This document shows positions 31,831 to 50,761 of a stretch of DNA of 64,000 nucleotides, one piece after another; the first letter of the stretch is position 1, and each line of letters begins with the position of its first letter. The stretch is from Desulfobacterales bacterium (GTDB lineage: Bacteria; Desulfobacterota; Desulfobacteria; Desulfobacterales; JAFDDL01): assembly GCA_034003325.1 (NCBI GenBank), contig JAVEYW010000002.1:315662-379661 (forward strand). Direction: 5' to 3'. Under the pieces are notes generated by a model, which was not told the origin of the DNA, did not search any database, and saw only the letters and a list, made by a program, of their open reading frames with translations. The position numbers were made by a program, and so were the translations under genes.

Positions 31831-32043
31831 ATGGCCGAGATGGAAGATCGTTGGTTATCGATTAGCGAGATATGCAAATACCTCGGGGTTAGCAACGATA
31901 CCGTTTACAAGTGGATTGACAGGCATGGCATGCCTTCCCACCGCATGGGCCGTCTCTGGAAGTTCAAAAAAGACGAAGTTGACAAATGGGTGAAGGCCGG
32001 CGGCGCGGCTATGCACGGAAAAGGGAATCAAGGCCTGAAATGA
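31831..32043 (+). CDS. excisionase-family / MerR-like HTH DNA-binding protein
   Basis: The product is 70 aa with 'WLSISEICKYLGVSNDTVYKWIDRHGMPSHRMGRLWKFKKDEVDKWV', with the RBS gaggag. Its stop overlaps the first ATG of brxA (ATGA at 32040-32043). Confidence 0.8.
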   Translation: MAEMEDRWLSISEICKYLGVSNDTVYKWIDRHGMPSHRMGRLWKFKKDEVDKWVKAGGAAMHGKGNQGLK

Positions 32044-32654
32044 AGAATGAAAGATACATCATGTCACTTACAACGGGCGGTCTTTTTCTCCGCGAGTCGA
32101 TAAAGTTGGCGGCGCTCTTTCTTGAGCAAAGTGACTGGAATGCGATTAGAGAAAAGGTTCTTTCCGAAAACCTGTTGCAAACGAGAACGCTGAGCACCTC
32201 AAAACGATTCTGTCGGGAAATCATCTCCAGGCTAAAAACACTCGACCCCCGTGAGATTGACTTACTGGTTCACGGTAGCGGTCAGGAGCAAGGCTGTCTT
32301 TTGTGGATCGCGGTTTGCCGTCGTTACAAATTCATTGCCGAGTTTGCCGTAGAGATTATTCGGGAACGTTACATCAGTCTCAAGACCGATCTTCACTATG
32401 AAGACTTTGATTCCTTCTTTAACCGGAAATCAGAGTGGCATCCCGAGCTTGATATAATTAAGCCGGCGACTCGAAATAAGCTCCGTCAGGTGTTGTTCAA
32501 AATTCTGCGAGAAGCCGAACTTCTGACCAACGATTATACCATCAATGCCGCCATGTTGAGCCCCCGGCTCTTGGAAGCCATTTCGCACAATAGTCGTGAG
32601 GCTGTTCTGTTTTTTCCTGCTTTTGAGTCCGATTTAATAGGGAGGGCGCGATGA
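32040..32654 (+). CDS. brxA: BREX protein BrxA (DUF1819)
   Basis: 'SLTTGGLFLRESIKLAALFLEQSDWNAIREKVLSENLLQTRTLSTSKRFCREIISRL' is the DUF1819 pattern. It occupies the first position of a brxABC-pglX-pglZ-brxL array. An alternative start lies at 32061. Confidence 0.85.
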   Translation: MKNERYIMSLTTGGLFLRESIKLAALFLEQSDWNAIREKVLSENLLQTRTLSTSKRFCREIISRLKTLDPREIDLLVHGSGQEQGCLLWIAVCRRYKFIAEFAVEIIRERYISLKTDLHYEDFDSFFNRKSEWHPELDIIKPATRNKLRQVLFKILREAELLTNDYTINAAMLSPRLLEAISHNSREAVLFFPAFESDLIGRAR

Positions 32655-33262
32655 TTTCGGGTATCGAGAAGAAATCCATGCAAGAAAGATTTCAGCATCT
32701 GTTTGATGTGATCTCCGGAAAACGGTTTCTTCAGAAGCAAGGTCTCGGGAACGAAGTTCCTTTCTTCATTTGCCCTTTCAGACCGGAAGAGTGCGTCGAG
32801 ATGGAACGGCTGCAACGGCAGCTTGTCAACAGTCTTTCGCATGCGGGTGTCCGCGTGCTCGAAATTAACCTCTATGATCTTTCCATCGAGATTCTTAAAG
32901 GACGGGACCTCTGGGAACAAATCCTCGATATAGAAAACTCGGTGTCCAAGGAACAGCTCAGGGAGTTACTCCAAGGGGTGTTAGATCCCGAAGCCCATTT
33001 GGTCCCCGCCATCGCCGCCAAGCTTGCGAACAATGAATTTGACGTGCTGTTTCTGGCCGGCGTCGGTGCGGTTTTTCCCTATATCCGATCTCACAATGTG
33101 CTGAACAACCTGCAAAGCACGGCAAAAGAAAAACCGACCGTCATGTTCTTTCCGGGGGCCTATACCCACTCCCTGGAATCGGGCGCATCGCTCGATCTTT
33201 TTGGAAGATTGCATGACGATAAATACTACCGGGCGTTCAACATCTTTCACTGCGAAGCCTAA
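32651..33262 (+). CDS. brxB: BREX protein BrxB (DUF1788)
   Basis: Translation shows 'GNEVPFFICPFRPEE...', 'VLFLAGVGAVFPYIRSHNVLNNLQ' and 'VMFFPGAY'. There is an ATGA overlap with brxA. Confidence 0.85.
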   Translation: MISGIEKKSMQERFQHLFDVISGKRFLQKQGLGNEVPFFICPFRPEECVEMERLQRQLVNSLSHAGVRVLEINLYDLSIEILKGRDLWEQILDIENSVSKEQLRELLQGVLDPEAHLVPAIAAKLANNEFDVLFLAGVGAVFPYIRSHNVLNNLQSTAKEKPTVMFFPGAYTHSLESGASLDLFGRLHDDKYYRAFNIFHCEA

Positions 33263-33276
33263 ACGAAGGAAACACG

Positions 33277-36200
33277 ATGACGCTGAAAACTATTTTTAAT
33301 AAGCCTGTTGACCGACCGATTGAAGGGGTCATCAAAGCCGACGATGAAGAAAGCCTTCTCCTTGAAACCGAAGAGTATGTGCTGACCAATGAGGTGGAAA
33401 AGCGCTTGGAGTCATTCCTGGATGCTTACAACACCTACGAGGGGGCCAACGGGGTTTGGGTTTCCGGCTTCTTCGGGTCCGGGAAATCTCATCTGTTGAA
33501 GATGCTGGCACTGCTTCTGGAGAACCGGCGGATCGACGGCGTTTCCGCTCTCGATTTGTTTCTTCCCAAGTGCGGCGATAACGAGATTCTCCGAGGGGAT
33601 CTCAAGCGGGCCGTTGCGATTCCCTCAAAAAGTATCCTGTTCAACATCGACCAGAAGGCGGATGTTATCAGCAAAACCCAGATCGATGCGCTCCTTGCCG
33701 TATTCGTCAAGGTGTTCGACGAAATGTGTGGCTACTACGGCAAGCAGGGTCATATTGCTCAATTTGAGCGCGATCTCGACAGCCGGGGGCATTATGAGGC
33801 GTTCAAATCGGCTTATCAAACTCTTGCCGGGAAAAGCTGGGAAAAAGGGCGCGAACAGGCATTGCTGGAGTCACAGAATATCGCCAAGGCCTATGCCCGG
33901 GCCACCGGCGGCGAGGATACCTCGGCAATGGGGATTCTCGATAAATACAGAAGCCAGTATCGGGTCTCGATCGAGGACTTCGCCGATCAAATAAAGGCCT
34001 ATGTGGACCGGCAATCTCCCGAGTTCCGGCTGAACTTCTTTGTTGACGAGGTCGGACAGTACATCGCCGGAAACGTGAAGCTGATGACGAACCTTCAAAC
34101 CATCGCCGAAAGCCTTGCCACCAAGTGCCGGGGCCGAGCCTGGATCATGGTGACCGCTCAGGAGGACATGAATTCGGTTGTCGGTGAAATGAGTAACCAG
34201 CAGGGTAACGATTTTTCCAAGATTCAGGCCCGTTTTGCCAACCGGATGAAACTTACCAGCGCCGATGTGGCCGAAGTGATTCAAAGGCGCCTGTTATTGA
34301 AAAACGATGAGGGGGTTCGACTGCTGTCAGACGTTTATCATGCGGAGGTGAACAACTTCAAAACCCTCTTTGACTTTGCGGACGGCTCGCCGATCTACCG
34401 CAATTTCCAGGACCGGGACCATTTCATTCACAGCTATCCCTTTATCCCTTACCAGTTCGTGCTGTTCCAGTCCGCAATTCAGAACTTATCCCAACATAAT
34501 GCCTTTGAAGGAAAACACAGCTCGGTCGGTGAGCGCTCCATGCTGGGCGTATTCCAGCAGGTGGCCATTCAAATCGGAGATCATCAAATCGGACAGCTTG
34601 CAACCTTTGACCTGATGTTTGAAGGGATTCGAACGGTTCTGAAATCCAATATTCAGCGCTCCATCCTGCAATCCGAAAAGCAGCTCGACAACCCATTTGC
34701 CATTCGGCTGCTGAAAACGCTTTTTCTCGTCAAGTACGTCAAGGAATTTAAGCCGACAGTCCGCAACCTGTGCGTGCTGATGCTGGATCACTTCAAGCAG
34801 GATCTGCCCCAACTGCGCCGGCAGGTTGAAGAGGCGCTCAACCTGCTGGAACTTCAGACCTACATTCAACGCCATGGAGACCTCTACGCGTATCTCACCG
34901 ACGAGGAAAAGGATGTCGAGCAGGAGATCAAAAACACCGAAGTTGAATCCACCGAGATCGCCGCAGAGCTTGAAAAGATCATTTTTGATTATGTCATCAA
35001 GAACCGAAAGATTCGCTACGACGAGAAAGGGCAGGACTACCCCTATTCCAGGAAACTCGATGACCGCCTTCACGGTCGGGAATATGAGCTTTCGATCAAT
35101 GCGATAACCCCTTTTCACGAATTTGCGGGAAATGAGCAAACCTTGCGAAGTCACTCGTTCAACCGGGAAGAGCTGCTGGTCGTGATGCCGCCGAATGATC
35201 GACTGGTGCGCGATATTCTGATGTACAAGCGAACTGAAAAATACATCAAGCAGAACATTTCCATCACTCAGCAGGAAGGGGTCAAACGTATCCTGACCGA
35301 TAAGGGCTTCCAGAACGCGGATCGCTATGCGGAGTTGAAGCAGCTTATCCAGATGCTTCTTGGCAAAGCCAAACTTTTTGTGGCGGGCAATGAGGTCGAG
35401 ATCGGTGGAGAAGATCCCCAGGCCCGAATCACCAAGGGGTTTCAACAACTTATTATACGCGCTTATCCGAACCTGCGCATGCTGCGCGGAATTGCCTACA
35501 CCGAAAACGATGTCGTTAAATGCCTCAAACAGTCCAAGGAGGGGCTGTTCGGTAATGATGTGACATCACTGGCCGAATCAGAGCAGGAATTGCTTGCTTT
35601 CATCCAGAGCAACATCCGCGGCGGCGTGCGCACGACCCTGAAGAGCCTGCTGGAAAAGTTTGAGCGCAAGCCTTATGGCTGGCCTTATGCGGCCGTTCTC
35701 TGCACACTTGCTCATCTTTGCGCCCGGGGCAAGGTAGAGGTTCGGACTGACGGAACAATCCTTGAGGAAGACGACCTCGAACGCGCGCTTCGCAACACGC
35801 ACAGCCATGGCAATGTTGTGCTGGAACCACAGGTCGATTTTACCCCATCCCAGGTTCGCAGCCTCAAGGAGTTCTATGAGGATTTTTTCGATAGCCCGCC
35901 CCGTGCCACTGAAGCAAAGGCACTTGCCAAGGAGACCGGTGCTGCCTTGAAGGACATGATACAGGACCTAAACCCCCTGGCGGCGCAGTCGGCGCAGTAT
36001 CCTTTCCTGAATGTGCTGACCCCGGTTCTTGAGAAGCTGAAAGGACTCGCCGGCAAACCCTACGCTTGGTATCTGACCGGGCTGCTGTGTGAGGATAATG
36101 CCCTGATTGCGCTGAAGGAAAAGGTCATTGACCCGGTTCGAAAGTTCATGAACGGGCCGCAAAAGGGTATTTTCGACGCTGCCCGTAAATTTGTGCAGGA

Positions 36201-36867
36201 GCAGGAGCCGAATTTTGACTACATCAGAGAAAGGGGAAGTGGGAAGCTCGAAGTGAAAGAGGGCTCACCCTACGGTTTTACGCCTGATACCTTGCTTCAG
36301 GCTTTGGCTGATCCCGAATGTTTTAAGGGTAATGGCATGCAGCAGGTGAAAACCCTGGTGGACACGCTGCAAGAAAAGGTGACGGCACGGATCGCGGCAG
36401 AGATCAAAAAAGCTTTAGATACCGTTGCGGCACTCAAGGACCGTCTTTGTGATATGGCCGAATTTGCCGCGCTAAAGCCAAGCCAGCAGGAGCAAATCAC
36501 TCGGTCATTCATCGAGTTTTCTCAGTCGATTGAACAACAAAAACTGATCGCCGTGATTCGCGATAACCTGCGGCGCTTTGAAGAATCCGACTACCAACGG
36601 CTGCTTTCCCAAATGGCTTCCTGGGCAAAACCCACACCAAAGCAAACCCCTTCGGGGGGAAGCGAACCGGCGCAAGCTTCAGGAAAGGAAACGGCAGTAA
36701 CACCGATTGAACCGGAAGCCCCTGTTGAATACGTGTCAGGCCGAAATCTCAGGTTTTCCTTTGATAAAGCCTGGCTTGCTGATGATTCGGATGTGGACCG
36801 GTACCTCAAGGCCATGCGGGAGGCGCTTTTGGCTGAGATCCGGAAAGGGAAGCGGATACAGATTTAG
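33277..36867 (+). CDS. brxC: BREX system P-loop ATPase BrxC
   Basis: The product is 1196 aa with the Walker A 'GFFGSGKSHLLKML', 'FFVDEVGQYI', and the size and position typical of BrxC. Confidence 0.9.
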   Translation: MTLKTIFNKPVDRPIEGVIKADDEESLLLETEEYVLTNEVEKRLESFLDAYNTYEGANGVWVSGFFGSGKSHLLKMLALLLENRRIDGVSALDLFLPKCGDNEILRGDLKRAVAIPSKSILFNIDQKADVISKTQIDALLAVFVKVFDEMCGYYGKQGHIAQFERDLDSRGHYEAFKSAYQTLAGKSWEKGREQALLESQNIAKAYARATGGEDTSAMGILDKYRSQYRVSIEDFADQIKAYVDRQSPEFRLNFFVDEVGQYIAGNVKLMTNLQTIAESLATKCRGRAWIMVTAQEDMNSVVGEMSNQQGNDFSKIQARFANRMKLTSADVAEVIQRRLLLKNDEGVRLLSDVYHAEVNNFKTLFDFADGSPIYRNFQDRDHFIHSYPFIPYQFVLFQSAIQNLSQHNAFEGKHSSVGERSMLGVFQQVAIQIGDHQIGQLATFDLMFEGIRTVLKSNIQRSILQSEKQLDNPFAIRLLKTLFLVKYVKEFKPTVRNLCVLMLDHFKQDLPQLRRQVEEALNLLELQTYIQRHGDLYAYLTDEEKDVEQEIKNTEVESTEIAAELEKIIFDYVIKNRKIRYDEKGQDYPYSRKLDDRLHGREYELSINAITPFHEFAGNEQTLRSHSFNREELLVVMPPNDRLVRDILMYKRTEKYIKQNISITQQEGVKRILTDKGFQNADRYAELKQLIQMLLGKAKLFVAGNEVEIGGEDPQARITKGFQQLIIRAYPNLRMLRGIAYTENDVVKCLKQSKEGLFGNDVTSLAESEQELLAFIQSNIRGGVRTTLKSLLEKFERKPYGWPYAAVLCTLAHLCARGKVEVRTDGTILEEDDLERALRNTHSHGNVVLEPQVDFTPSQVRSLKEFYEDFFDSPPRATEAKALAKETGAALKDMIQDLNPLAAQSAQYPFLNVLTPVLEKLKGLAGKPYAWYLTGLLCEDNALIALKEKVIDPVRKFMNGPQKGIFDAARKFVQEQEPNFDYIRERGSGKLEVKEGSPYGFTPDTLLQALADPECFKGNGMQQVKTLVDTLQEKVTARIAAEIKKALDTVAALKDRLCDMAEFAALKPSQQEQITRSFIEFSQSIEQQKLIAVIRDNLRRFEESDYQRLLSQMASWAKPTPKQTPSGGSEPAQASGKETAVTPIEPEAPVEYVSGRNLRFSFDKAWLADDSDVDRYLKAMREALLAEIRKGKRIQI

Positions 36868-36921
36868 TGCCTTATGGATTATTTTCTTGTTATTTTAAAA
36901 AGAAAATAATCCATAAGGCAC
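36867..36921. repeat. perfect 22-bp inverted repeat (hairpin) immediately after brxC stop
   Basis: GTGCCTTATGGATTATTTTCTT (36867-36888) and AAGAAAATAATCCATAAGGCAC (36900-36921) are separated by an 11-nt loop. No downstream T-run follows. Confidence 0.85.
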
Positions 36922-36951
36922 TTATCCCGGCGCCGGGGTTAGGAGTTACAC

Positions 36952-38625
36952 ATGAACGTAAGTGAACAGGAAGTCCTTGATCTGATTCGGCAAGGTGAAA
37001 ACCTGACCATTGAATTTAAAAGTGACCGGAAAAAGCTGTCTGACAGCGACCTGGTCGCTGCCATCGTCGCTCTGACAAACACGGAATGCGGCGTCCTTAT
37101 TTTGGGCGTGGAAGACGATGGGGCCATCACAGGGCTTCATGCATCCCACCGGGATACGCTTGGGATGGCCGCCCTAATTGCGAACCGCACCAATCCACCG
37201 CTTTCCGTCGGGATAGAACAAATTAAAGTTCAAGATATACCAGTCGTTCTCCTCCGTGTTCCCAAATCCAGACAACTGGTTTCTACCTCTGATGGATTGA
37301 TTCAGCGAAGGCGATTAATGGCAAACGGCAACCCCGAAGCCGTACCTTTTTACCCGCATGAATTTATTCAAAGACAATCTTCAATGGGATTGACCGACCC
37401 TTCCGCGATGCCCATCCAGGAATTACCCATCGATGAATTAAACCCCCTGGAAAGGCACCGAATACGCGAAGCTATTCGAAAATTCGGGGGCGATCAATCC
37501 TTGTTGCCGCTTGCGGACAATGAGTTGGATGGGGCTCTCGGGTTGACCAGGATTTCCGGTGGATCACTGTGCCCGACTTTGGCCGGGTTGCTGCTGCTTG
37601 GGCGCGAAGAACATCTGCGGCAATACTTGCCGGCATATGAAGTTGCCTTCCAAGTCCTTGAGGGTACGGATGTCAGGGTCAATGAGTTTTTCAGAAAACC
37701 GCTGTTACAAACTTTCGAGGCGGTAGAGCAGCTTTTTAGGGTACGTGTTACTGAGCAAGAGATTCAAATGGGGCTTTTCAGGGTTGCGGTTCCCAATTTT
37801 GATCGCCGCGCCTTCCGGGAAGCGTTTGTCAACGCGCTAGTTCATCGGGATTATTCCAGATTAGGCGCTGTCCATGTCCGTTTGGATGACGATGGCATCA
37901 CCCTTTCCAATCCCGGAGGCTTTGTTGAAGGTGTCACCTTGCAAAACCTGCTGGTTGTTCCTCCACGTGCACGAAATCCACTACTTGCGGATATTGTAAA
38001 GCGCATCGGCTTGGCGGAAAGGACAGGCCGCGGGATCGACCGTATTTATGAAGGAATGCTTCGATACGGACGCCCGGCGCCGGACTATGGCATGTCCGAT
38101 GCCACCTCTGTAGTGCTGTCCCTGTCCGATGTAGACCCTGACTTCAAATTTTTGGAAATGATCCTGAACCAGGAAAGCCGGACAGGATCCGCCCTGCCTA
38201 TTGACAGCTTGATTCTGCTTTCCCGTCTACGGAATGAACGCCGCCTTTCCATAGCAGAACTCACGCCGGAAATCCAAAAATCGGATCAAGCCACCAGGCG
38301 GGTCCTTGAAAAACTGGTGGAAGCGGGGCTGGTTGAGGCCCACGGTGTCGGTCGTGGCCGCACATACACGCTGAGCGTCAAGGTTTACCAGCAATCCGGG
38401 CAGAAAGCGGCATATGTCCGTCAGGCTGGGTTTGATCCCATTCAGCAGGAACAGATGGTTTTGAACTACATTGACGCGCATGGTTCCATTAAACGAGCGG
38501 ATGTGATTGAGCTTTGTCGATTAACCAAGGATCAGGCCGCGAAGCTTTTAAAACGGCTTATTTTTAAAGGGAATATAGAAAAGCATGGCGAGCGCAGGTG
38601 GACTCACTATGTGCGCAAATCATAA
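36952..38625 (+). CDS. AlbA_2 (Schlafen-like 'divergent AAA') + HATPase_c_4 + C-terminal winged-HTH protein (COG2865-type)
   Basis: The N-terminus 'EQEVLDLIRQGENLTIEFKSD...AIVALTNTECGVLILGVEDDGAITGL' is AlbA_2. The middle, 'FREAFVNALVHRDYS...VRLDDDGITLSNPGGF...RNPLLADIVKRIGLAERTGRGIDRI', is HATPase_c_4. The C-terminus has two HTH-like repeats. Confidence 0.8.
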   Translation: MNVSEQEVLDLIRQGENLTIEFKSDRKKLSDSDLVAAIVALTNTECGVLILGVEDDGAITGLHASHRDTLGMAALIANRTNPPLSVGIEQIKVQDIPVVLLRVPKSRQLVSTSDGLIQRRRLMANGNPEAVPFYPHEFIQRQSSMGLTDPSAMPIQELPIDELNPLERHRIREAIRKFGGDQSLLPLADNELDGALGLTRISGGSLCPTLAGLLLLGREEHLRQYLPAYEVAFQVLEGTDVRVNEFFRKPLLQTFEAVEQLFRVRVTEQEIQMGLFRVAVPNFDRRAFREAFVNALVHRDYSRLGAVHVRLDDDGITLSNPGGFVEGVTLQNLLVVPPRARNPLLADIVKRIGLAERTGRGIDRIYEGMLRYGRPAPDYGMSDATSVVLSLSDVDPDFKFLEMILNQESRTGSALPIDSLILLSRLRNERRLSIAELTPEIQKSDQATRRVLEKLVEAGLVEAHGVGRGRTYTLSVKVYQQSGQKAAYVRQAGFDPIQQEQMVLNYIDAHGSIKRADVIELCRLTKDQAAKLLKRLIFKGNIEKHGERRWTHYVRKS

Positions 38626-38636
38626 GTTATGCGTCA

Positions 38637-38698
38637 GGCTCATAGCTTATGAGCCGGCTCATAGGAGGCTCATAGGAGGCTCATAGGAGGCTCATATC
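38637..38698 (+). repeat. GGCTCATA motif array: one 8-bp-stem palindrome plus 3.5 tandem copies of an 11-bp unit (GGCTCATAGGA)
   Basis: The sequence reads GGCTCATAgctTATGAGCC, then GGCTCATAGGA x3 (38656-38688), then GGCTCATAtc. It lies directly after the stop of the AlbA_2 gene, ~190 bp upstream of pglX. Confidence 0.9.
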
Positions 38699-38890: not shown

Positions 38891-41800
38891 ATGGAAACTT
38901 CGAAGCTGAAAAAATTTGCACAGTATGCGCGCCGAAACTTAATAGAGCAGGTTTCCGCCAAGCTGAAGCTGGTATTGGCCGAGGACAGCGCGGCCCGGCG
39001 CGAGAATGCCCCAGCCGTTAAAAAGCTTGAAGAGCAGATCGGGGAAACTGGCGAAAGCCAAGTGATCGAAAAGGTCGCCTATACCTGGTTTAATCGTTTC
39101 TGCGCGCTGCGTTTCATGGATGTGAACCGTTATACCCGGATTGGTGTGGTGTCGCCTGCAGAAGGGCAGTTTCAGCCTGAGATTTTGGCCGAGGCCAAGA
39201 TGGGCCATATCGACGAGAGCATGGTACCCGAGAAAACCCGGCAGAAGGTTTTTGCATTGCTGGATGGCAAGGTTCCCAGTAATGATCCGCAGACTGAGGC
39301 TTACCGACTCCTCGTGGTTGCCGTTTGTAACGACTACCACGATGCCATGCCCTATCTGTTTGAGCGGATTGCCGATTACACCGAACTGCTGATGCCCGAT
39401 GATCTGCTTTCGGGAAACTCTATCCTGGCCTACACCCGCGAGGCGATGACGCCTAATGCCTGCCAGGACGTGGAGGTCATCGGATGGCTCTACCAGTTTT
39501 ATATCAGCGAGAAGAAGGACGAGGTCTTTGACGGCCTGAAGAAAAACAAGAAAATCACCCCCGAAAATATTCCGGCAGCGACACAGCTCTTCACCCCGCA
39601 CTGGATCGTGCGGTATCTGGTTGAAAATTCCCTCGGTCGTCTCTGGATGCTGAACCGTCCCGATTCGAGATTGATTGAACGGATGGACTACTACATCAAG
39701 CCCGAAGAGGCGGAAACCGATTTCCTGCGCATCAGCAAGCCGGAAGAACTGAAGATCTGCGATCCGGCCTGCGGCTCCGGGCACATGCTGACTTATGCCT
39801 TCGACCTGCTCCATGCCATTTATGAGGAAGAAGGCTATGAACCTGCGGAGATCCCGGAAAAGATCCTCACCCACAACCTCTACGGCATCGAGATCGATGA
39901 ACGCGCCGGGGAACTGGCTGCCTTTGCCCTGACCATGAAGGCCCGCGCCAAACATCGCCGCTTTTTCAGAAAGAAGGTGGTCCCCAATATCTGCGTGCTG
40001 GAAAATATCCGGTTCAATGAGGGCGAGCTAAAGAGTTACATGGATTTTGTCGGGCGGGATCTTTTTACCGCGCCTTTGCAAACCACCCTGCGGCAGTTTG
40101 AAGAGGCGGATAACTTCGGGTCTCTGATTCGCCCTAAGGTAAGCGATGTGGCGTGGATATTAAAAACGCTGAAAGAGAAGAATGTCTCTGGACAAATTTT
40201 TCTGAGCAAGACCCATCTGAAGGTATTGAAGGTCTTGCGGCAGGCCGACTATTTCAGCCCCCAGTATCATGTGGTGATTGCTAATCCGCCGTATATGGGG
40301 GGCAAGGGGATGAATGGGCGTCTGGGTGCTTGGCTTAAAGATAACTATCCAGATGTGAAGTCTGATTTGTTTTCGGCCTTTATGGTTCGAAATACTGAGC
40401 TTGCTTTGCCGAAAGGCCAATTGGGTTTCATGTCGCCATTTGTATGGATGTTTATTTCATCTTTCGAAAGGCTACGCAATTTCCTCATTAATCAGAAAAC
40501 GATCACTTCACTTGTCCAGCTCGAATACTCCGGCTTTGATGGAGCAACGGTGCCAATTTGCACTTTCACTGTGGAGAACACACATCATCCCGATTTTAAG
40601 GGAGGGTATGTACGCCTTTCCGATTTTCGTGGGTCAGAATACCAAGGCCCAAAAACGCTCGAAGCCATTAATAATCAAAATTGTGGCTGGTTTTACCGAT
40701 CTTCCGGCACCAACTTCAAGAAAATACCCGGCAGTCCTATCTCTTATTGGCTGAGCGAAAAGTTGTTGAATAGCTTCACTAAAGCAAAGGAATACCTTTC
40801 AGATTCTGGAACTATACGTGAAGGTATAACAACTGGAGACAATGACCGTTTCTTGAGACTGTGGTATGAGGTTGGTCAATCTCATACGCAACTTGAATAT
40901 GATCAAGGCAACAGTTCTTATAAATGGTTTCCGCATAGAAAAGGGGGGGGCTATAGAAAATGGGCTGGGAATATGGAGTATTTTCTTAATTGGAAGGATA
41001 ACGGTACAGACATTCATGTGTTTCATGCGTTGCCACTTGACTATAATGGCGCACCAGTTCGTGGCAAAGCATATTTTTTTAGAGAGGCATTGTCTTGGAG
41101 TCGTATTAGCTCAGGAAAATTTTCATTGCGTTACCATAAAGCGGGCTCAACATATGACTCAACTGCGCCATCAGTATTCACAAGTTCCGACCGAAAAAAT
41201 CAAACGCTCGCTTTTTTGAATGGGAAAATTGTTGCTCATCTCTTGGCTGCGATAAGTCCAACCCTTGACTTCAGAATTACTAATCTCGGCAGATTGCCGT
41301 TGCTCTCTATCAACTCGTCCAGTCTGTCAAAAATTAATGCAAACACCATAGCTTTGGTTCGTTCTGGGCAAGTGGATTGGGATTCCTACGAAACCTCTTG
41401 GGATTTTAATGACCTGCCGCTACTTCGACCCGATTATTGGCAACCAACTTTGAACACCACTTACCAGAAGCTCCGCGCCCACTGGCAGGAAATGGCACTT
41501 GAAATGCAACGTCTCGAAAAAGAGAACAACCGCATCTTTATTGAGGCCTATGGCCTGCAAGATGAGCTAACACCCGACGTCCCTCTAAGTGAAATCACCC
41601 TGACCTGCAATCCCCACTACCGCTACGGTAACAACAAGAGCGAAGACGAGCTGGAAACCTTGCTCCTGGCCGACACCATGAAGGAGTTTATCTCCTACGC
41701 CGTGGGCTGCATGTTCGGCCGCTATTCGCTGGATAAACTGGGGCTAATTCTTGCCAACCAGGGCGAAACCATTGAGGATTATCTGAAGCAAATCCCCGAA

Positions 41801-43677: not shown

Positions 43678-46182
43678 ATGAATGATCGCATTGTCCAGGC
43701 ACTGACCAAGCTATTTGAGCGTTACCGCATCGTCTTCTGGTATGACGCCAAAAAGGAACTGCGTGCTGATTTCGAGGCGCTGGCGTTGGACGGGATTGAG
43801 AAGGTGGAGCTCACCAACAATGAGTTCGGGGTGAAACACCGGATTCTGCGGGAGCAACCGGAGCAGAAGTTTCTCCTCTACCGCGAAGGCCCACAGCCCG
43901 ACGACTTGGACAACTGGCTGCTGGATGTTCAGTTGGCCCATGGTGAATTCCGGACCGATCAGGCCGCGATCTGGCTCTCCGAGTTGGAGCTGGGACTTGA
44001 GTTTACCGATGTAGTGCAGGCTCATGCGGAGTTCTATCAGGCGGCTAAGCGAAAGGATGCACTTAAGCAGATCCTTAAACCCGATGATACCCCCGGCATG
44101 ATCCGCCTGAAGATGCTGGCGGTGTGCGCGGGATGTAAAACGGACCCGCGCATGGATGCCGTGGTGGAAAACCTGCTCGCGGAACTGGCCGATGAGCGGG
44201 ACGATAAGATGAAACTGATCGGCCGTTGCAATCTGGAGGGTTTTCTCTGGGAGCAGATGACCCGCTGCTACGGTTACAAGTCCGATGAGCCGGGCATACG
44301 CGATTTTGTTATCGAACTCTTTAAATCCTGCTATGCCATGGGGACCGATGGCGAGATCCGCCTGACCGGGGATGCCCTCGTGTTCCTCAAACACTGGAAA
44401 GACAGCCGTTCGTTTGAAGCGAGTTTTGAAACGCTCTCCGCTGAGTGTGCCGATGTGATCGGCATCGAACAGGATCTGGCCAAGCGGGATTACCGTGAAT
44501 TGATCGAGCTGGATTACTTCCCCCTGATTGATCAGAAAATTATCAGCGAGCTGGTTAAGGCCGTGGCATCCCGGACCGTATCAAGCGGCGATGTAGCGCT
44601 TTGGGTTCGTCCGCGCCGGCAGGGCCACTGGTTCGGAGAGTATCGCCACCTCTACGAAGCCGTTGATTTTGCCGCACAGTTCATGCAGACCATGGATGAG
44701 GCGGTATTAACCATGGTCAGTCTGGCGGATGGCGTTCAGCGTTACAGCCGTTTCTGGTTCCCATTGGATCAACTCTACCGAAAGTTCACTTACCATGTCC
44801 GCATGTCGGGGCAGGCCTCTCTAATGGGGGCATTATCCGAGCGAATTGAGAACCTCTATTCAAATAATTATCTGCTGAAGGTCAATGACCACTGGCAGTC
44901 TTTCGTCGACGAAACGGGCAAATGGGAGGCCCCTCCCGTCCCGCTGCAAAAGGACTTTTTCAGTCGCTGGGTACAGCCTTTTCTGAAGAAGGACAACAAG
45001 GTCTGTGTCATCATTTCGGACGCCTTACGCTATGAGATCGGCGACGAGTTATTGAGCCTCATTCGCCGGGAGGATCGATTCGAGGCGCATCTGGAACCCG
45101 CCTTGACCCTGTTACCGAGCTATACCCAGCTGGGCATAGCGGCGCTATTGCCCCATAGGGAATTGGCTCTGGCCGACAACGAAACTGGAGTTGTTCTCGC
45201 GGACGGCCAAAGCTCTCAAGGCACGGCCAATCGCATCAAGATCCTGGCGCAGGCCATTTCCCAACGGGCCACCGCGGTGAAGGCTGATGAATTAATGGGG
45301 TTAAATAAAGAGGATTGCAGAGGGTTAATTCGGGATCACGATGTGGTCTACGTATATCATAACCACATTGATGCAATCGGCGGCAAACGCGAAACGGAAG
45401 AACGCGTATTCGAGGCCGTGGAAGAGACCCTGCAGGATCTGATTCGATTGATTAAAAAACTCACCGGAGCCAACGCCAACAACCTGCTCATAACCTCGGA
45501 CCATGGTTTCATCTATCAGAACCGGGCCATCGAGGAGAGCGATTTTTCCGGTTGCGATGCCGTTGGGGACCTGATTCTGTTCCGTGACCGGCGTTTTGTG
45601 TTGGGCAAGGGGTTGAAGGAGGTTTCGGGCCTTCGCAAGTTTCAATCCGCCCAGCTTGGACTGGTCGGCGATGTGGAAGTGCAGATCCCGAAATCAATTA
45701 ACCGGCTGCGACTGAAGGGTTCGGGAAGCCGATTCGTCCACGGGGGCGCATCGCTTCAGGAGGTGGTGGTTCCGGTCCTTAAGATCAACAAAAAGCGGCA
45801 GAGCGATATTTCGTCAGTTGAAGTTGATATTTTACGAGGATCAAGCTCTGTGATCACCTCCGGTCAGCTCGCTGTCGCGCTCTACCAGGCGCAACCGGTA
45901 ACCGACAAGGTGCAGCCGAGAATCCTCCGGGCGGGTATCTTCACCCAGGCGGGCAATCTGATTTCCGATAGCCACGAGCTGACGTTTGACCTGGCATCCA
46001 ACAACCCGAGGGAAAGGGAGCAACAGGTGCGTTTTCTCCTGACCCGCAAGGCGGATGAGGCCAATGGCCAGGAGGTGATCCTGAAACTGGAGGAAAAACA
46101 TGTCGGGACCTCTCATTACAAAGAGTATAAGTCGCTCCGGTATATGATGCGGCGCTCATTTACCAGCGATTTTGACTTTTAA
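43678..46182 (+). CDS. pglZ: BREX-1 alkaline-phosphatase-superfamily protein PglZ
   Basis: The product is 834 aa with 'RIVFWYDAKKELR' at the N-terminus and a PglZ core 'VCVIISDALRYEIGDEL...TSDHGFIYQ...FVHGGASLQEVVVPV'. Confidence 0.9.
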   Translation: MNDRIVQALTKLFERYRIVFWYDAKKELRADFEALALDGIEKVELTNNEFGVKHRILREQPEQKFLLYREGPQPDDLDNWLLDVQLAHGEFRTDQAAIWLSELELGLEFTDVVQAHAEFYQAAKRKDALKQILKPDDTPGMIRLKMLAVCAGCKTDPRMDAVVENLLAELADERDDKMKLIGRCNLEGFLWEQMTRCYGYKSDEPGIRDFVIELFKSCYAMGTDGEIRLTGDALVFLKHWKDSRSFEASFETLSAECADVIGIEQDLAKRDYRELIELDYFPLIDQKIISELVKAVASRTVSSGDVALWVRPRRQGHWFGEYRHLYEAVDFAAQFMQTMDEAVLTMVSLADGVQRYSRFWFPLDQLYRKFTYHVRMSGQASLMGALSERIENLYSNNYLLKVNDHWQSFVDETGKWEAPPVPLQKDFFSRWVQPFLKKDNKVCVIISDALRYEIGDELLSLIRREDRFEAHLEPALTLLPSYTQLGIAALLPHRELALADNETGVVLADGQSSQGTANRIKILAQAISQRATAVKADELMGLNKEDCRGLIRDHDVVYVYHNHIDAIGGKRETEERVFEAVEETLQDLIRLIKKLTGANANNLLITSDHGFIYQNRAIEESDFSGCDAVGDLILFRDRRFVLGKGLKEVSGLRKFQSAQLGLVGDVEVQIPKSINRLRLKGSGSRFVHGGASLQEVVVPVLKINKKRQSDISSVEVDILRGSSSVITSGQLAVALYQAQPVTDKVQPRILRAGIFTQAGNLISDSHELTFDLASNNPREREQQVRFLLTRKADEANGQEVILKLEEKHVGTSHYKEYKSLRYMMRRSFTSDFDF

Positions 46183-46196
46183 AGGATGATCGAGCG

Positions 46197-48284
46197 ATGA
46201 ACGAACTTGACCAGAAAATAAACAAACACTTTCAAGGCCTTGTTGTTCGAAAAGATCTCGTCAAGACCGTCAAGGGCAACGCCATTGTTCCCTCCTACGT
46301 GCTTGAATATCTGCTGGGGCAATATTGCGCGACCAGCGACGAGGCTTCAATTGCGACAGGTATCGAGACCGTCAAGGAGATCCTGCGCAAGCACTATGTG
46401 CATCGAAACGAAGCGGGCCTGGTCCGTTCCAATATTAAGGAAAAGGGGCGCTATAAGGTCATTGACAAGATTAGCGTCGTGTTGAATGACAAGACGGATG
46501 CTTACGAGGCGGAGTTTTCCAATCTTGGTATCAAAAAGGTGCTGGTAGATTCCGGGACAGTGAAAGCGCACCCCAAGCTCTTGGTCAGCGGCGTCTGGTG
46601 CATCGCCGATATCGAATACGAGTTCACCGAGGAAAAAAATGCCACCCCCTGGATTTTATCAACGCTAAAACCGATCCAGCTGTCTCACTTTGATTTTGAT
46701 GGCTATGTTGAAGCCAGGAAACAATTTAACACCGACGAGTGGATCGATCTTTTGATCCAGAGCATCGGTTTCAACCCGGAGATGTTTGGCCGGCGGAGCA
46801 AGCTTTTGCAACTGATCCGGCTCATCCCCTTCTGCGAGCGCAACTACAACCTGATCGAACTCGGCCCCAAGGGGACGGGGAAATCCCATATCTATTCGGA
46901 GTTTTCACCCCACGGCATTCTGCTCTCCGGCGGTGAGGTAACCGTTCCCAAGCTATTTGTAAATAACGCCTCCGGTAAGATCGGCCTTGTCGGCTACTGG
47001 GATGCAGTCGCCTTCGATGAGTTCGCTGGGAAACAAAAGAAGGTGGATAAGGCGCTTGTGGATATCCTGAAAAATTACATGGCCAATAAGTCCTTCTCAA
47101 GGGGCGTTGAAACCCTCGGCGCGGAGGCATCCATGGTTTTTGTCGGGAATACCCGGCACACCGTGCCTTACATGCTCAAGCATTCAGATCTGTTCGACGA
47201 GCTGCCCGAAAAGTTCTATGACTCCGCATTCCTTGACCGTATTCATTTTTACATTCCCGGCTGGGAAGTGGATATCATCCGTGGCGAGATGTTTTCCAAT
47301 GGCTATGGTTTTGTGGTGGATTACCTTGCGGAGATCCTCCGGTCTCTGCGCAACCACGATTATTCGGACCGTTACAAAGAGCACTTTTCGCTTTCCACCG
47401 ATATCTCGACCCGCGACCGGGACGGTATCCATAAAACGTTTTCAGGCCTGATGAAGATCCTTTTCCCGGATGGAGGCGCATCCAAGGAGGAGATCGAGGA
47501 ACTGCTGAAGTTCGCCATTGAAGGCCGAAAGCGCATCAAAGATCAATTGCTGCGAATAGATACCACTTACCCAAGGGTGAAATTTGCCTATTTGGATACC
47601 ACGGGAAAAACCCGGCTGGTGAAAACACTCGAAGAAGAGGAGTATCCCCATTGCTACCACAAGACCGTTGCTGAAGAGGAAGCCGGAGCAACTGATACCG
47701 ACATCGATTCCCAAGAAATTCCAGATTCCCCACACGGAGATTCTTCCGATGCCCAACCTGCCGTCAAGGAACAACATCTGACTTTCCAGGAAAACCAGAG
47801 GGGCATCTCTTTTGACACCTTGCTTGGCCCATATCTGCGCGGCGCAAGCCGGATTACCATGACAGACCCCTATATCCGCCTGTTTTATCAAATGCGTAAC
47901 TTCATGGAATTCCTTGAAACAGTCGCAAAAAACAAGCCCAAGGACGAAGAGGTCACTGTTCACCTGGTAACAACAGAAGACGAGTTCAAAGGGGCACAAC
48001 AGAAAGAAAATTTCGAGAAGATAAAGGAATCCTGCGGCGCCGTTGGTATTGACTTTACCTGGGAATTTGACGCAACCGGGACTATTCACGCTCGCCACAT
48101 CGTGACCGATCATGGATGGAAGATCCTTCTGGATCGAGGCCTGGATATCTTCCAGCACTATGAGATGAACGATGCCTTCACTTTTGCCAACCGCCTTCAG
48201 CAATATCGGTCTTGTAAGGCCTTCGAGGCTACATTTATTAAAAATGAAATCTGTTCACATAGCACTGCTGCGGCAAAATCATGA
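46197..48284 (+). CDS. brxL: BrxL-family ATPase (Lon_2-type N-terminal + AAA core) with non-canonical C-terminal MIT_C/PLD-fold domain
   Basis: The N-terminus 'MNELDQKINKHFQGLVVRKDLVKTVKGNAIVPSYVLEYLLGQY' and the Walker A 'GPKGTGKSH' with 'WDAVAFDEFAG' are BrxL-like. The last ~170 aa, 'GISFDTLLGPYL...TDPYIRLFYQMRNFMEFLE...VHLVTT...IHARHIVTDHGWKILLDRGLDIF', align by eye with the MITD1 C-terminal domain. Confidence 0.8.
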   Translation: MNELDQKINKHFQGLVVRKDLVKTVKGNAIVPSYVLEYLLGQYCATSDEASIATGIETVKEILRKHYVHRNEAGLVRSNIKEKGRYKVIDKISVVLNDKTDAYEAEFSNLGIKKVLVDSGTVKAHPKLLVSGVWCIADIEYEFTEEKNATPWILSTLKPIQLSHFDFDGYVEARKQFNTDEWIDLLIQSIGFNPEMFGRRSKLLQLIRLIPFCERNYNLIELGPKGTGKSHIYSEFSPHGILLSGGEVTVPKLFVNNASGKIGLVGYWDAVAFDEFAGKQKKVDKALVDILKNYMANKSFSRGVETLGAEASMVFVGNTRHTVPYMLKHSDLFDELPEKFYDSAFLDRIHFYIPGWEVDIIRGEMFSNGYGFVVDYLAEILRSLRNHDYSDRYKEHFSLSTDISTRDRDGIHKTFSGLMKILFPDGGASKEEIEELLKFAIEGRKRIKDQLLRIDTTYPRVKFAYLDTTGKTRLVKTLEEEEYPHCYHKTVAEEEAGATDTDIDSQEIPDSPHGDSSDAQPAVKEQHLTFQENQRGISFDTLLGPYLRGASRITMTDPYIRLFYQMRNFMEFLETVAKNKPKDEEVTVHLVTTEDEFKGAQQKENFEKIKESCGAVGIDFTWEFDATGTIHARHIVTDHGWKILLDRGLDIFQHYEMNDAFTFANRLQQYRSCKAFEATFIKNEICSHSTAAAKS

Positions 48285-48347
48285 TTATTCATTTTGAATG
48301 ACACCAATGCTGAATCGGAAATTCCACTTCGATAATAAGGATAGAAT

Positions 48348-50006
48348 ATGAGAAAAGAGACATTACCCGTTCCATTTCCAAGATCGTACTGGGTTATCCC
48401 TGGCGTATTCATGGCCGGAGAATTTCCAGGTGCGCAAAGCCAGATTGAGGCAGACCATAAGCTTATCAAACTGATTGATTGCGGAATTCAGCACATCATT
48501 TGTTTGATGCAGCCGGATGAAACCGATCATAGTGGAAATCCCTTTAACGAATATGAAGATAGTGTCTTAAGGTTAGCAGAAAAGAAAAAAGTGACCGTGT
48601 CCTGTTTCAGGTTTCCCATAGCCGATCAGAATGTGCCAGGGGAATCTGAAATGAAGGTAATTCTTGATGCTATCACAATCAGCATCGAAAACCGGAAACC
48701 CGTCTACGTTCATTGTTGGGGCGGCATCGGTCGTACAGGCACAGTAGTAGGCTGTTTTTTATTGAAAAACGGGCTCGCTACTTCCGGCGATGTATTGCAA
48801 ACCATAGCCGATTTGCGAAAAGACGATCCGAAGAAACACCGAATCTCCCCCGAAACGGATGCCCAGCGAAAATATGTTAAATCTTGGCTCGATAGAGATA
48901 ATGGGCAACCAACAAACCTTTCGCGGACCATTGGGTGCATGTTGGGTGGCGCCGTCGGAGACGCATTGGGCGCCCCTGTTGAGTTTATGAAACGAGAGGA
49001 TATCCTGCGTCGTTTTGGGCCGGATGGAATTACCAGCTACGCACCGGCTTACGGAGGCTTGGGCACCATTACCGACGATACCCAGATGACGCTTTTTACC
49101 GCAGAAGGTTTAATTCGAGGTGATGTCCGAGGCCGCCACAAGGGCATTACGACGTACACAGGCATGACCGAAAACGCTTACCAGCGCTGGCTTTACACTC
49201 AAGGGGAGCGGTCTGCTAAATATATCGATATTAGCGGTGAAGGAGCGGGATGGCTGATCCAGCAACAGGCTTTGCACAACCGCCGGGCACCGGGGAACAC
49301 CTGCATTTCAGCTCTTAAGGAGATGTCGAAAACCGATAAACCAGCCCGTAATAACAGCAAGGGATGTGGCGGGGTGATGCGGATGGCGCCGGCCGGATTG
49401 TTTCACTGGCGCCTGAAAAACTACCATTCACCGCAGGAAACCTTCCAACTCGGAAAGGAACTGGCAGCGCTAACTCACGGTCACCCTACCGGAGCGCTTA
49501 CTGGTGGGGTGCTGGCTATTCTGATCTTAGCGCTGGCAGATGGTGCGACACTACCGGACGCTCTTTCATTGGCTAAAACCTTATTACGTCAGGAACGCCA
49601 GCATGAAGAAACGCTGTTGGCCATACAGCTTGCCGAAGAATATTCGAAGGCTGACATGCCCCATGAAGTTGCTATTTCTAAAATCGGCTTGGGATGGATC
49701 GCCGAAGAAGCGCTTGCCATCTCGATTTATTGTGCTCTCGTTGCCCGCGATTTTCGGGATGGTATCATTCTGGCGGTGAATCACGATGGTGATTCAGACT
49801 CGACGGGTTCGATTACTGGCGATCTTCTTGGCACTGTTTATGGCGCAAATGCCATTCCGCATGAATGGCTAGAGCCTCTTGAGTTAAGGGCGGTGATAAC
49901 CGAGTTGGCCCAAGATCTGTATGTTTTTCGCAACTGGAATATTGGCGAGTACTCAAATAACGAGGAATTAAACAAGTACATCTGGGAAAAATATCCTGGA
50001 TACTAA
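48348..50006 (+). CDS. fusion protein: CX5R (dual-specificity/PTP-like) phosphatase domain + ADP-ribosylglycohydrolase (ARH/DraG family) domain
   Basis: The N-terminal ~185 aa carry the P-loop 'VHCWGGIGRTGTVVG'. The C-terminal ~360 aa read 'GCMLGGAVGDALGAPVEF...TITDDTQMTLFTAEGL...GCGGVMRMAP...HGHPTG...AVNHDGDSDSTGSITGDLLG', the typical ARH metal-binding signatures. Confidence 0.85.
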   Translation: MRKETLPVPFPRSYWVIPGVFMAGEFPGAQSQIEADHKLIKLIDCGIQHIICLMQPDETDHSGNPFNEYEDSVLRLAEKKKVTVSCFRFPIADQNVPGESEMKVILDAITISIENRKPVYVHCWGGIGRTGTVVGCFLLKNGLATSGDVLQTIADLRKDDPKKHRISPETDAQRKYVKSWLDRDNGQPTNLSRTIGCMLGGAVGDALGAPVEFMKREDILRRFGPDGITSYAPAYGGLGTITDDTQMTLFTAEGLIRGDVRGRHKGITTYTGMTENAYQRWLYTQGERSAKYIDISGEGAGWLIQQQALHNRRAPGNTCISALKEMSKTDKPARNNSKGCGGVMRMAPAGLFHWRLKNYHSPQETFQLGKELAALTHGHPTGALTGGVLAILILALADGATLPDALSLAKTLLRQERQHEETLLAIQLAEEYSKADMPHEVAISKIGLGWIAEEALAISIYCALVARDFRDGIILAVNHDGDSDSTGSITGDLLGTVYGANAIPHEWLEPLELRAVITELAQDLYVFRNWNIGEYSNNEELNKYIWEKYPGY

Positions 50007-50059
50007 AGGGGAAATATGGCTCCTGTATTTCAGCGGCCATATTTGATCAAGGTGCCTTG

Positions 50060-50761
50060 ATGTCAATTTTTTCTTCTATAAAAGGTTTCGATGGCGAGTT
50101 AACTGGGTGGTTGTCCAAAAAACTGTTTCTCGATAGTGAAATTTATAAAGATTTTAACAACGTCACCATTAATACAAACAGTGGCACCACGCAAATTGAT
50201 CAGATAATCGTTTCCAAATTCGGGATTTTTGTCATTGAGGTTAAAAATTTAAAAGGTTGGATTTTTGGGGATGAAAAAGCTGCAAAATGGACACAAGCCC
50301 TTAATGGGAAAAAATATCAGTTCCAGAATCCATTGCGGCAGAATTTCAGACACACAAAAGCGTTATCTGCGTTTCTTGGTATAGACCACTCCAAGATTTA
50401 TTCCGTGGTGATGTTTTGGGGAGAGTGTGAATTCAAGACACCTATGCCGGAAAATGTCATGATGCGCGGCTGGACCAAGTATGTTAAATCCAAGTCGAAG
50501 ATAATGTTCACAGATGATGAAGTCGTCCAAATCGGTGAAGCTATCATGACCGGCCGTCTCCCAGCGACCTGGAACACAAAAAAGGCTCACCTTCAATCAC
50601 TGAAGGAGAGACACCAAGACGATGGCGTTTGCCCTAAATGCGGCCGTGGTCTCGTTTTGAGAACCGTTAGAAAAGGCCCCGAAATTGGAAGTCAGTTTTA
50701 CGGATGTTCAGGATTTCCTCAGTGCCATTTCACAAAAGCCGCCAAAATTGCAAACGGATGA
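50060..50761 (+). CDS. NERD-domain protein with C-terminal topoisomerase-type C4 zinc finger
   Basis: 'QIDQIIVSKFGIFVIEVKNLKGWIFGDEKAAKWTQ...QFQNPLRQNFRHTKAL' is NERD, and 'CPKCGRGLVLRTVRKGPEIGSQFYGCSGFPQCHF' is zf-C4_Topoisom-like. The gene is markedly AT-rich. Confidence 0.8.
   Translation: MSIFSSIKGFDGELTGWLSKKLFLDSEIYKDFNNVTINTNSGTTQIDQIIVSKFGIFVIEVKNLKGWIFGDEKAAKWTQALNGKKYQFQNPLRQNFRHTKALSAFLGIDHSKIYSVVMFWGECEFKTPMPENVMMRGWTKYVKSKSKIMFTDDEVVQIGEAIMTGRLPATWNTKKAHLQSLKERHQDDGVCPKCGRGLVLRTVRKGPEIGSQFYGCSGFPQCHFTKAAKIANG

Follow-up and report, generated by a model that had tools for sequence, protein, structure and literature searches.

Type 1 bacteriophage exclusion (BREX) operons in which BrxL carries an HKD endoDNase domain in place of the Lon-like domain were recorded in 1030 of 2913 type-1 BrxL taxa (Rakesh and Krishnan, Nucleic Acids Res 2026, PMC12839542). 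In the same work, at least 1017 taxa were found to carry Schlafen genes with a minimal kinase and a winged helix-turn-helix (wHTH) beside BREX and related cores, PD-(D/E)XK nucleases were the most prevalent auxiliaries embedded in BREX, and both kinds of embedded gene were interpreted as auxiliary or backup effectors. The locus described here belongs with these systems. It lies at positions 31831-50761 of a 64,000-nt stretch of the metagenome-assembled genome of a Desulfobacterales bacterium (GenBank assembly GCA_034003325.1, contig JAVEYW010000002.1, positions 315,662 to 379,661 of the forward strand), which is referred to as the window. Comparison with related loci makes it quite probable that independent defence cassettes are nested in and beside a type 1 BREX operon of the BrxL-PLD/HKD subclass, within a chromosomal island of approximately 24 kb. 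For this BREX clade such an architecture is the usual one; it has been described in the literature before, and public records already annotate it.

Eleven open reading frames (ORFs), all on the plus strand, make up the locus in the ORF listing, and the encoded proteins are annotated in NCBI under the consecutive accessions MDX9785835-45. They are as follows:

31831-32043, plus strand: HTH_17/excisionase-type, MAD1-like helix-turn-helix (HTH) leader gene, 70 aa (Pfam HTH_17 1.6e-16; PADLOC mad1 1.2e-15; 'excise' domain 77 bits)
32040-32654, plus strand: brxA (DUF1819; Pfam BrxA 7e-56; PADLOC BrxA 5.5e-85, matching from ORF residue 19, i.e., 32040)
32651-33262, plus strand: brxB (DUF1788; Pfam BrxB 1e-41; PADLOC 9.7e-71), overlapping brxA by 4 nt
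33277-36867, plus strand: brxC, P-loop ATPase (PADLOC BrxC 1877 bits, full length; matches to the Pfam BrxC 4th, helical and wHTH domains)
36952-38625, plus strand: cassette 1, SLFN_AlbA_2 + HATPase_c_4 + tandem wHTH, 557 aa (Pfam SLFN_AlbA_2 1.7e-15, HATPase_c_4 2e-18, wHTH hits; PDB 3LMM 6e-19)
38891-42406, plus strand: pglX, N6-adenine methyltransferase and specificity subunit (PADLOC PglX 1457 bits, full length; Pfam Eco57I, MmeI_Mtase, N6_Mtase)
42414-43574, plus strand: cassette 2, DUF1016_N + YhcG_C PD-(D/E)XK nuclease, 386 aa (Pfam YhcG_C 4.4e-55, DUF1016_N 8.8e-25), its ATG 7 nt past the pglX stop
43678-46182, plus strand: pglZ, type A (NCBIfam TIGR02687 1089 bits, cutoff 270; PADLOC PglZ 1128 bits; Pfam PglZ 3e-65)
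46197-48284, plus strand: brxL, HKD/PLD (MIT_C) variant (Pfam BrxL_N, BrxL_ATPase 6e-131, MIT_C 1.5e-43; PADLOC PDLC02508, full length)
48348-50006, plus strand: fusion of a dual-specificity-type protein tyrosine phosphatase (PTP-SAK) with an ADP-ribosylglycohydrolase (ADP_ribosyl_GH), 552 aa, here PTP-ARH (Pfam PTP-SAK 1.4e-18, ADP_ribosyl_GH 9.3e-76, 255.7 bits)
50060-50761, plus strand: NERD + Zn_ribbon_Top1 (C4 Zn-ribbon) gene, 233 aa (Pfam NERD 2.1e-27, Zn_ribbon_Top1 8e-11; D...E-V-K motif)

A previous reading of the window from its letters, referred to as the sequence-only reading, had proposed much of this anatomy, and the genes, the extras and their order were all recovered by the ORFs and domain matches. 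The six genes brxA, brxB, brxC, pglX, pglZ and brxL are clustered in canonical order on one strand, as in type 1 BREX. The small HTH gene said to be coupled to brxA overlaps it as ATGA at 32040-32043, the HTH stop codon running into the brxA start. The Schlafen/AlbA_2-type ATPase-HTH gene lies between brxC and pglX and the DUF1016 nuclease 7 nt behind pglX, BrxL ends in a PLD-fold MIT_C domain instead of a Lon domain, and the phosphatase-ADP-ribosylglycohydrolase fusion and the NERD/Zn-finger gene follow in the same orientation after short gaps of 63 and 53 nt, respectively. Pfam, PADLOC and NCBIfam models, against which the proteins were to be checked, gave strong full-length matches for the core and assigned the extras by domain. 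The extras counted as four non-canonical genes are all present, and they are five when the HTH gene is counted. In a correction to the gene boundaries, brxA starts at 32040 and not at the first ATG of its ORF; for the NERD gene, the ATG at 50060 is the most likely start. Catalytic motifs are intact in PglX (NPPY), BrxL (H-x-R-x4-D), the phosphatase (HCX5R), the hydrolase (Asp clusters) and the DUF1016 and NERD proteins (D...E-x-K). A near-identity search of E. coli genomes with the 21.5-kb locus returned zero matches.

The core can be read by way of published work on other BREX-1 systems. PglX, with NPPY at residue 465 as in N6-adenine methyltransferases, presumably methylates a non-palindromic host motif, the BREX core presumably blocks the replication of unmethylated phage DNA, and BrxL would be a DNA-loading AAA+ ring. 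The sequence-only reading assumed a canonical BREX without any nuclease; this premise is outdated, as PglZ is reported to be a metal-dependent nuclease (PMC12205998).

Residues 3-469 of BrxL match the solved Acinetobacter BrxL (8EMC, 2.7e-144). For residues 526-656, the match was to MIT_C of human MITD1 (5.7e-16), a domain with the PLD fold, rather than to a Lon domain. Behind the N-terminal and MCM-like AAA+ domains, the place of a Lon-like domain is thus taken by a PLD-fold domain with the motif H-x-(K/R)-x4-D, which is the composition of the HKD/PLD subclass. NCBIfam TIGR02688 scored 667 bits (cutoff 329), and the Lon-type model TIGR02653 reached 607 bits, below its cutoff of 628. The motif reads HARHIVTD at residues 631-638, with H631 and R633 invariant in 82 of 82 aligned sequences, and the PLD-like domain is predicted to cleave DNA. 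To our knowledge, the human MIT_C homologue is not known as a nuclease. The same Lys-to-Arg change, termed 'HRD', has been recorded in BrxL-HKD (PMC12839542). The label of an atypical BrxL did not hold: PF16565 (MIT_C) was present in all 120 of the 120 best homologues, which were 83-96% identical and spanned different phyla, with members from Chlorobium, Pseudomonas, Aeromonas, Desulfovibrio and others, and more than a thousand type-1 taxa carry the HKD domain, as given above.

Junctions between core genes were compared in the 80 best genomic loci encoding an HKD-type BrxL, taken with 10-kb flanks and with the core genes mapped. A junction was called occupied at a gap of more than 900 nt and tight at less than 150 nt. 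The pglX-pglZ junction was visible in 64 loci, being occupied in 47 and tight in 17, and the brxC-pglX junction was visible in 22, with 15 occupied and 7 tight. The pglZ-brxL junction, visible in 78 loci, was occupied in 3 and tight in 64, with a gap that usually measured 16-19 nt. Clean six-gene arrays were found in only 3 of the 22 loci in which both main junctions were visible. The decoration of the operon had been called unusual in the sequence-only reading; these counts, along with the auxiliaries already published (PMC12839542), do not bear this out.

All gap ORFs of classified families were located on the BREX strand. They belonged to PtuA/Septu-like pairs, HEC-01 and HEC-02 ABC-ATPase pairs, RloA/RloB, GmrSD (BrxU-like), the DRT UG5-nitrilase reverse transcriptase, DUF1016, Schlafen-HATPase, PDDEXK_3 and 23S-rRNA-IVP proteins. 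DUF1016 occurred at the pglX-pglZ junction in 9 of 64 loci, and also on two Methylomonas plasmids, and genes unrelated to it filled this junction in 38 of 64. Orthologues of cassette 1 with 56-68% identity were present 5' of pglX in 10 related loci, and more distant versions (23-28% identity) were found at the pglX-pglZ junction in six. The cassettes combine freely, and the pair seen in the window, Schlafen at brxC-pglX with DUF1016 at pglX-pglZ, occurred in 0 of the 80 sampled loci. Since the extras are sporadic, swapped, freely combined and also found without BREX, they are best read as interchangeable independent cassettes.

Cassette 1 has the composition of the published Schlafen-minimal kinase-wHTH auxiliaries, with an N-terminal SLFN/AlbA_2 domain, a central HATPase_c_4 domain and C-terminal wHTH domains beside a BREX core. 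Cassette 2 matches the PDC-S02/DUF1016 (YhcG) family (PDLC04807, 4.6e-125) with the motif IDLVF...VELK, and this family is a predicted nuclease and a single-gene candidate system in PADLOC. Both genes would be self-contained accessory defence cassettes at the brxC-pglX and pglX-pglZ junctions, probably riding on the transcription of the operon. They probably add a second layer of defence, a nuclease or RNase triggered independently or upon inhibition of BREX. In Bacillus cereus BREX-1, one operon ends and another begins between pglX and pglZ (Luyten et al.), and by analogy this may explain why insertions are tolerated there; the E. coli BREX paper did not address operon structure.

The closest relative of the locus, L002 in the numbering of the fetched loci, is from a metagenome-assembled genome (MAG) of a Pseudomonadota bacterium, and its BrxL is 96% identical. 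A different Schlafen-HATPase gene of 495 aa takes the position of DUF1016 in L002, and approximately 70 nt of the DUF1016 5' end remain past the pglX stop. PTP-ARH is reduced to a remnant with an internal deletion and the NERD gene is absent. When pglX was compared between the two (window 40400-41600, L002 3043-4270), both ends of the gene were 88% identical at the DNA level and the middle could not be aligned. A differing middle between matching ends suggests that a target-recognition region was exchanged, and hence that L002 would have a different BREX motif and specificity.

A trace of recent cassette insertion is found in a Halothiobacillus MAG (L004, 6170-7530), where a DUF1016 gene 80% identical to that of the window is flanked by a direct repeat of approximately 50 nt of the pglX 3' end (score 94, z 38). 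Such a duplicated core-gene 3' end at cassette borders was found in L004 only, with the window and all other loci at chance level, so that border duplication is not a general mechanism. A border repeat aligned by eye in the window was likewise rejected, its alignment score being at chance level.

The sequence-only reading had left two options, several independent defence genes nested inside BREX or a variant BREX with integrated extra parts. The first is favoured here and the second disfavoured, as the extras are sporadic, swapped and also BREX-free. As an integrated variant, all eleven genes would form one machine, with DUF1016 and the BrxL HKD domain as DNA-cleaving effector and the Schlafen-HATPase-wHTH protein as sensor or regulator. 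The genes do share one strand, and the recruitment of nucleases as auxiliary BREX effectors is a published hypothesis (PMC12839542). DUF1016 also sits exactly at the pglX-pglZ junction in its nine loci, 7 nt past pglX in the window and 3-6 nt on the two Methylomonas plasmids, but the junction is empty in 17 of 64 loci and filled by unrelated genes in 38, mostly stand-alone defence systems (Septu-like, HEC-01, GmrSD, DRT). L002 has kept a DUF1016 remnant, yet it replaced the gene itself and retains the BREX core. With DUF1016 listed by PADLOC as a system of its own and the cassette combinations free, one integrated machine appears unlikely. Least probable of all is that the extras are inert, selfish or decaying hitch-hikers without a defence role, tolerated where insertions spare the operon: PTP-ARH is visibly decaying in L002 and lacks a PADLOC match, one of its homologues lies among housekeeping genes (L113) and a related NERD gene is internally deleted (L112), but the five extras of the window are full length with intact catalytic motifs, the junction families are overwhelmingly known or candidate defence families, the 56-68% identity of Schlafen orthologues across distant taxa points to purifying selection, and the HTH protein belongs to a 419-member cluster at 90% identity.

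Some points weigh against independent nested cassettes, the favoured reading. The narrow DUF1016 spacing and its recurrence at one junction fit functional coupling as well, and a sporadic distribution is not proof of functional independence in those loci that do carry a cassette. The survey covered the 80 best BrxL matches, every one of the HKD type, and many of the surveyed loci come from metagenome bins and end at contig edges. In a scan for promoter and terminator consensus sequences, the counts did not exceed those expected from shuffled sequence, and none of the intergenic gaps held a convincing intrinsic terminator; transcription units can therefore only be inferred. Co-occurrence of the extras in related loci had been set in advance as a measure of the sequence-only reading; the extras are sporadic and without fixed co-occurrence, and the outcome largely went against it. 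Its novelty was to fall if the same architecture was already catalogued, and the architecture has indeed been described (PMC12839542), though not as a named subtype.

The operon is led by the HTH gene, and two sites were located directly before it:

31670-31692, plus strand: operator-like site of three direct ATCGG repeats (10-nt spacing) next to the -35 hexamer (Tandem Repeats Finder (TRF) period 10 at 31666-31693; alignment of upstream regions)
31695-31724, plus strand: sigma-70-like promoter match TTGACA-18-TATCTT, 10 of 12 positions, the top plus-strand site, with a -35 hexamer conserved in related loci

The triple-ATCGG motif is single-copy in the 64-kb window, and in the 125 fetched loci it was found only 5' of HTH homologues (L084, L085, L095, L101, L120, L057). 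In the alignment of upstream regions it is conserved amid surrounding sequence that is not. Intact HTH homologues with 69-92% identity (L096 possibly partial) abut or overlap the brxA 5' end in 9 of the roughly 22 metagenomic BrxA loci with enough upstream sequence, and remnants with about 65% identity precede brxA in 2 further loci of this set. Other BrxA loci have a different gene, of 287-290 aa, at the leader position. A homologue is also present directly 5' of brxA on plasmid pLM6.

From the conserved site we infer that the HTH protein would bind at the ATCGG repeats, and that the pair would form an autoregulated operator-promoter travelling with its gene, functionally akin to a restriction-modification controller protein. 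The operon most likely starts at the promoter near 31695, and the 70-aa MAD1-like protein probably controls it through the three repeats beside the -35 hexamer. The leader is not BrxR, because it has only the HTH_17/excisionase domain and no WYL domain. Nor does it belong to MAD1: the NCBIfam model NF047737 scored 77.3 bits against a cutoff of 80, the operon is BREX and not MADS, and the likeness to MAD1 is in position only. Deletion of mad1 had little effect on MADS defence, and the MADS authors class mad1 among widespread regulators. The searched BREX literature contained no description of such a leader.

On plasmids pHRM2a (L121, 12001-18109) and MEALZ_p (L122, 11944-21267), related small HTH genes overlap the first gene of another operon by 4 nt. 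These operons consist of SNF2/helicase-DUF4391-methyltransferase(-DEAD helicase-ATPase) genes and have no ATCGG motif; a like leader gene therefore heads several distinct methylation-linked operons. The MAD1-like HTH gene with the triple-ATCGG operator may be a portable controller cassette for BREX-1 and other methylation-based defence operons. In a Planctomycetaceae MAG (L057, 640-1472), a C-terminal pglX fragment is directly preceded by the ATCGG motif and by a fragment of the HTH protein (27 aa, 96% identity). This arrangement suggests a deletion by which the leader of the operon became joined to the pglX end.

The PTP-ARH and NERD genes behind brxL are independent island genes, sometimes travelling together, and not BREX components, as judged from the varied BREX-free settings of their homologues. 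The fusion carries the motifs HCWGGIGR, GDALG, TDDT and DGDSDST, and PADLOC has no match or model for it. Its hydrolase belongs to the ADP_ribosyl_GH superfamily without reaching an equivalog cutoff (DraG 88.9 bits, cutoff 337; Tri1 80.3 bits, cutoff 490); DraG-, Tri1- and MJ1187-type enzymes are nearest by sequence, and the hydrolase domain is 65-70% identical to many proteins bearing other N-termini. Full-length homologues were found in six varied settings. In L112 the homologue lies in a BREX-free defence island with RloA/B, AbiE and Fic and is followed by a NERD gene, and in L113 it is surrounded by housekeeping genes. Its neighbours are CHAT and KAP NTPase genes in L114, Cas remnants with SLATT and TIR genes in L116, and a gene encoding a 1356-aa protein without annotation in L117. 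In L118 and L119 it is carried by a conjugative element, where a PglZ-SNF2 system precedes it by 1.8 kb. In this last setting, a separate 132-aa ORF (L118, 2832-3230; L119, 4681-5079), a duplicate of the phosphatase N-terminus with 51% identity to PTP-ARH residues 1-109, lies approximately 1 kb 5' of the full-length gene.

The pair itself recurs in L112 at 71 and 88% identity, respectively, the NERD gene there being the internally deleted one. Proteins of this NERD-Zn-ribbon type, about 230 aa long, have a very wide distribution, and close homologues are otherwise solitary in varied islands. In L125, a gene for a 449-aa BrxL_ATPase + MIT_C protein without the BrxL N-terminal domain (9835-11184) lies on the opposite strand approximately 3 kb from a NERD-Zn-ribbon homologue; other BREX genes are absent nearby. 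The gene may be left over from a BREX system, or it may encode a BrxL derivative that stands alone. PglW of type 2 BREX consists of NERD followed by tandem Ser/Thr kinase domains in about 1400 aa. The window protein is no PglW, as its match to the PglW model is confined to NERD residues 20-110 and to model positions 1-114, and it has 233 aa, a Zn-ribbon end and no kinases.

The pair carries no assigned defence role. A reasonable guess, and no more, is that the hydrolase removes ADP-ribosyl marks, possibly placed by phages. It is doubtful that PTP-ARH and NERD form an uncatalogued mobile two-gene module for defence or counter-counter-defence. In such a module, ADP-ribosyl (or ADP-ribose-phosphate) marks that a phage had placed on proteins or nucleic acids of the host would be removed by the hydrolase and the phosphatase, or these two would instead process a signal derived from ADP-ribose. 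Phage DNA would be the target of the NERD nuclease, and the module may preferentially accompany PglZ-based systems. This suggestion draws on the recurrence of the pair in the BREX-free island of L112, on full-length or ARH-only homologues close to systems with BrxL or PglZ (L002, L050 and L119), on both catalytic sites being intact, and on a fusion for which PADLOC lacks a model. A search of the accessible literature returned no paper linking 'ADP-ribosylglycohydrolase' with DSP-PTPase or 'Swiss Army Knife', and Pseudomonas aeruginosa SrpA was ruled out as a relevant match, being an unrelated XRE protein. The portable HTH controller is a milder proposal than this module, yet a more likely one.

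Two repeat features flank the Schlafen gene of cassette 1:

36866-36922, no strand: inverted repeat I1, a hairpin with a 27-bp stem, 96% complementary, and a 3-nt loop, overlapping the brxC stop at the left edge of the cassette
38620-38696, no strand: repeat array directly 3' of the gene (family D2), a palindrome GGCTCATAGCTTATGAGCC with 3.7 copies of GGCTCATAGGA (TRF period 11, 100% matches)

The I1 hairpin is followed by the GC-rich palindrome CCCGGCGCCGGGG. The tandem array of GGCTCATA had no verbatim copy in any fetched locus, only a looser related repeat; TATGAGC/GCTCATA-type repeats of this looser kind lie 3' of orthologous Schlafen genes in L008 and L056. The array could be a binding array for the wHTH domains of the cassette itself, or a slippage-prone tract approximately 200 nt 5' of pglX.

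The BREX block stands between a gene for a major facilitator superfamily (MFS) transporter and a tRNA-Val/tRNA-Asp-lon-clpX-clpP-tig cluster, and the following features mark its borders:

29235-29269, no strand: left copy of a 35-nt direct repeat (D6), 89% identical to the right copy, just past the MFS transporter gene
53079-53285: TnpV fragment (score 8e-7)
53526-53560, no strand: right copy of the 35-nt direct repeat (D6), 17 nt from the tRNA-Asp 3' end
53577-53654, minus strand: tRNA-Asp

The two copies bracket a 24.3-kb block with the whole BREX locus. The direct repeats and the tRNA/TnpV setting therefore place the BREX operon in an island of approximately 24 kb. No integrase was found in the island, and the repeats look like the att-type borders of a degenerate, integrase-less genomic island. 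Besides PTP-ARH and NERD, it holds an MqsA/Panacea-type antitoxin gene and a gene for an oxidoreductase of the old yellow enzyme (OYE) type. At its left end (29531-31419), a gene for a 276-aa protein that joins an MqsA-type Zn-ribbon/HTH antitoxin to a SocA/Panacea domain is followed by two or three small ORFs without a family match (30390-30827, 30831-31199 and 31135-31419), and this stretch may be a Panacea-type toxin-antitoxin module. An Rfam search of the window returned four tRNAs and nothing else.

The locus is a further case of a published picture and adds little to it: BREX-1 operons, especially those with an HKD-type BrxL, serve as scaffolds on which interchangeable secondary defence genes gather at fixed junctions. 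In practice it is of use as a compact and apparently intact test case with all catalytic motifs present, for which L002, with one cassette swapped and another lost, provides a natural comparison of how far cassettes depend on BREX. The fresher details are the HTH leader with its triple-ATCGG site, which bears on the control of BREX expression once the operon enters a new host, and the PTP-ARH and NERD pair that is also found without BREX.

Among known systems, MADS resembles the locus in having MAD1 as the first gene of a methylation-based defence operon, the position of the HTH gene here (77.3 bits, just short of the cutoff of 80); further MADS genes are absent from the window operon. The MAD6 N-terminus and PglW resemble the NERD domain of the window, which lacks their kinase domains. 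The first gene of the Acinetobacter BREX-1 operon likewise encodes a regulator, BrxR. This protein has wHTH, WYL and WCX domains, whereas the window regulator is a 70-aa excisionase-type HTH without WYL, and the inactive Lon-like C-terminal domain of Acinetobacter BrxL (8EMC) is missing from the window BrxL. In the BREX of Escherichia fergusonii pEFER, BrxU (GmrSD family) is a separate restriction enzyme in or beside BREX for complementary protection, and the GmrSD genes at the pglX-pglZ junction of related loci recall it.

BrxL-HKD type 1 BREX (PMC12839542) shares with the window the six core genes in canonical order, the PLD/HKD C-terminus with H-x-R ('HRD'), and PD-(D/E)XK and Schlafen-minimal kinase-wHTH genes embedded between core genes. 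The excisionase-type HTH leader, the ADP-ribosylglycohydrolase and the stand-alone NERD-Zn-ribbon gene, all present in the window, are not mentioned in the main text of that paper. The closest likeness in gene order is seen on two Methylomonas plasmids. Methylomonas koyamae pLM6 (NZ_CP023670.1) carries HTH(4-nt overlap)-brxA-brxB-brxC-[two genes]-pglX-[PDDEXK/DUF1016]-pglZ-brxL, and pFW12EY (NZ_AP019778.1) carries pglX-PDDEXK-Shedu-pglZ-brxL, with core proteins 66-74% identical to those of the window. On these plasmids, the brxC-pglX cassette is an ABC-type ATPase pair rather than a Schlafen gene, and an SbcCD-like pair takes the downstream place of PTP-ARH and NERD. The Methylomonas loci are plasmid-borne, while that of the window is chromosomal.

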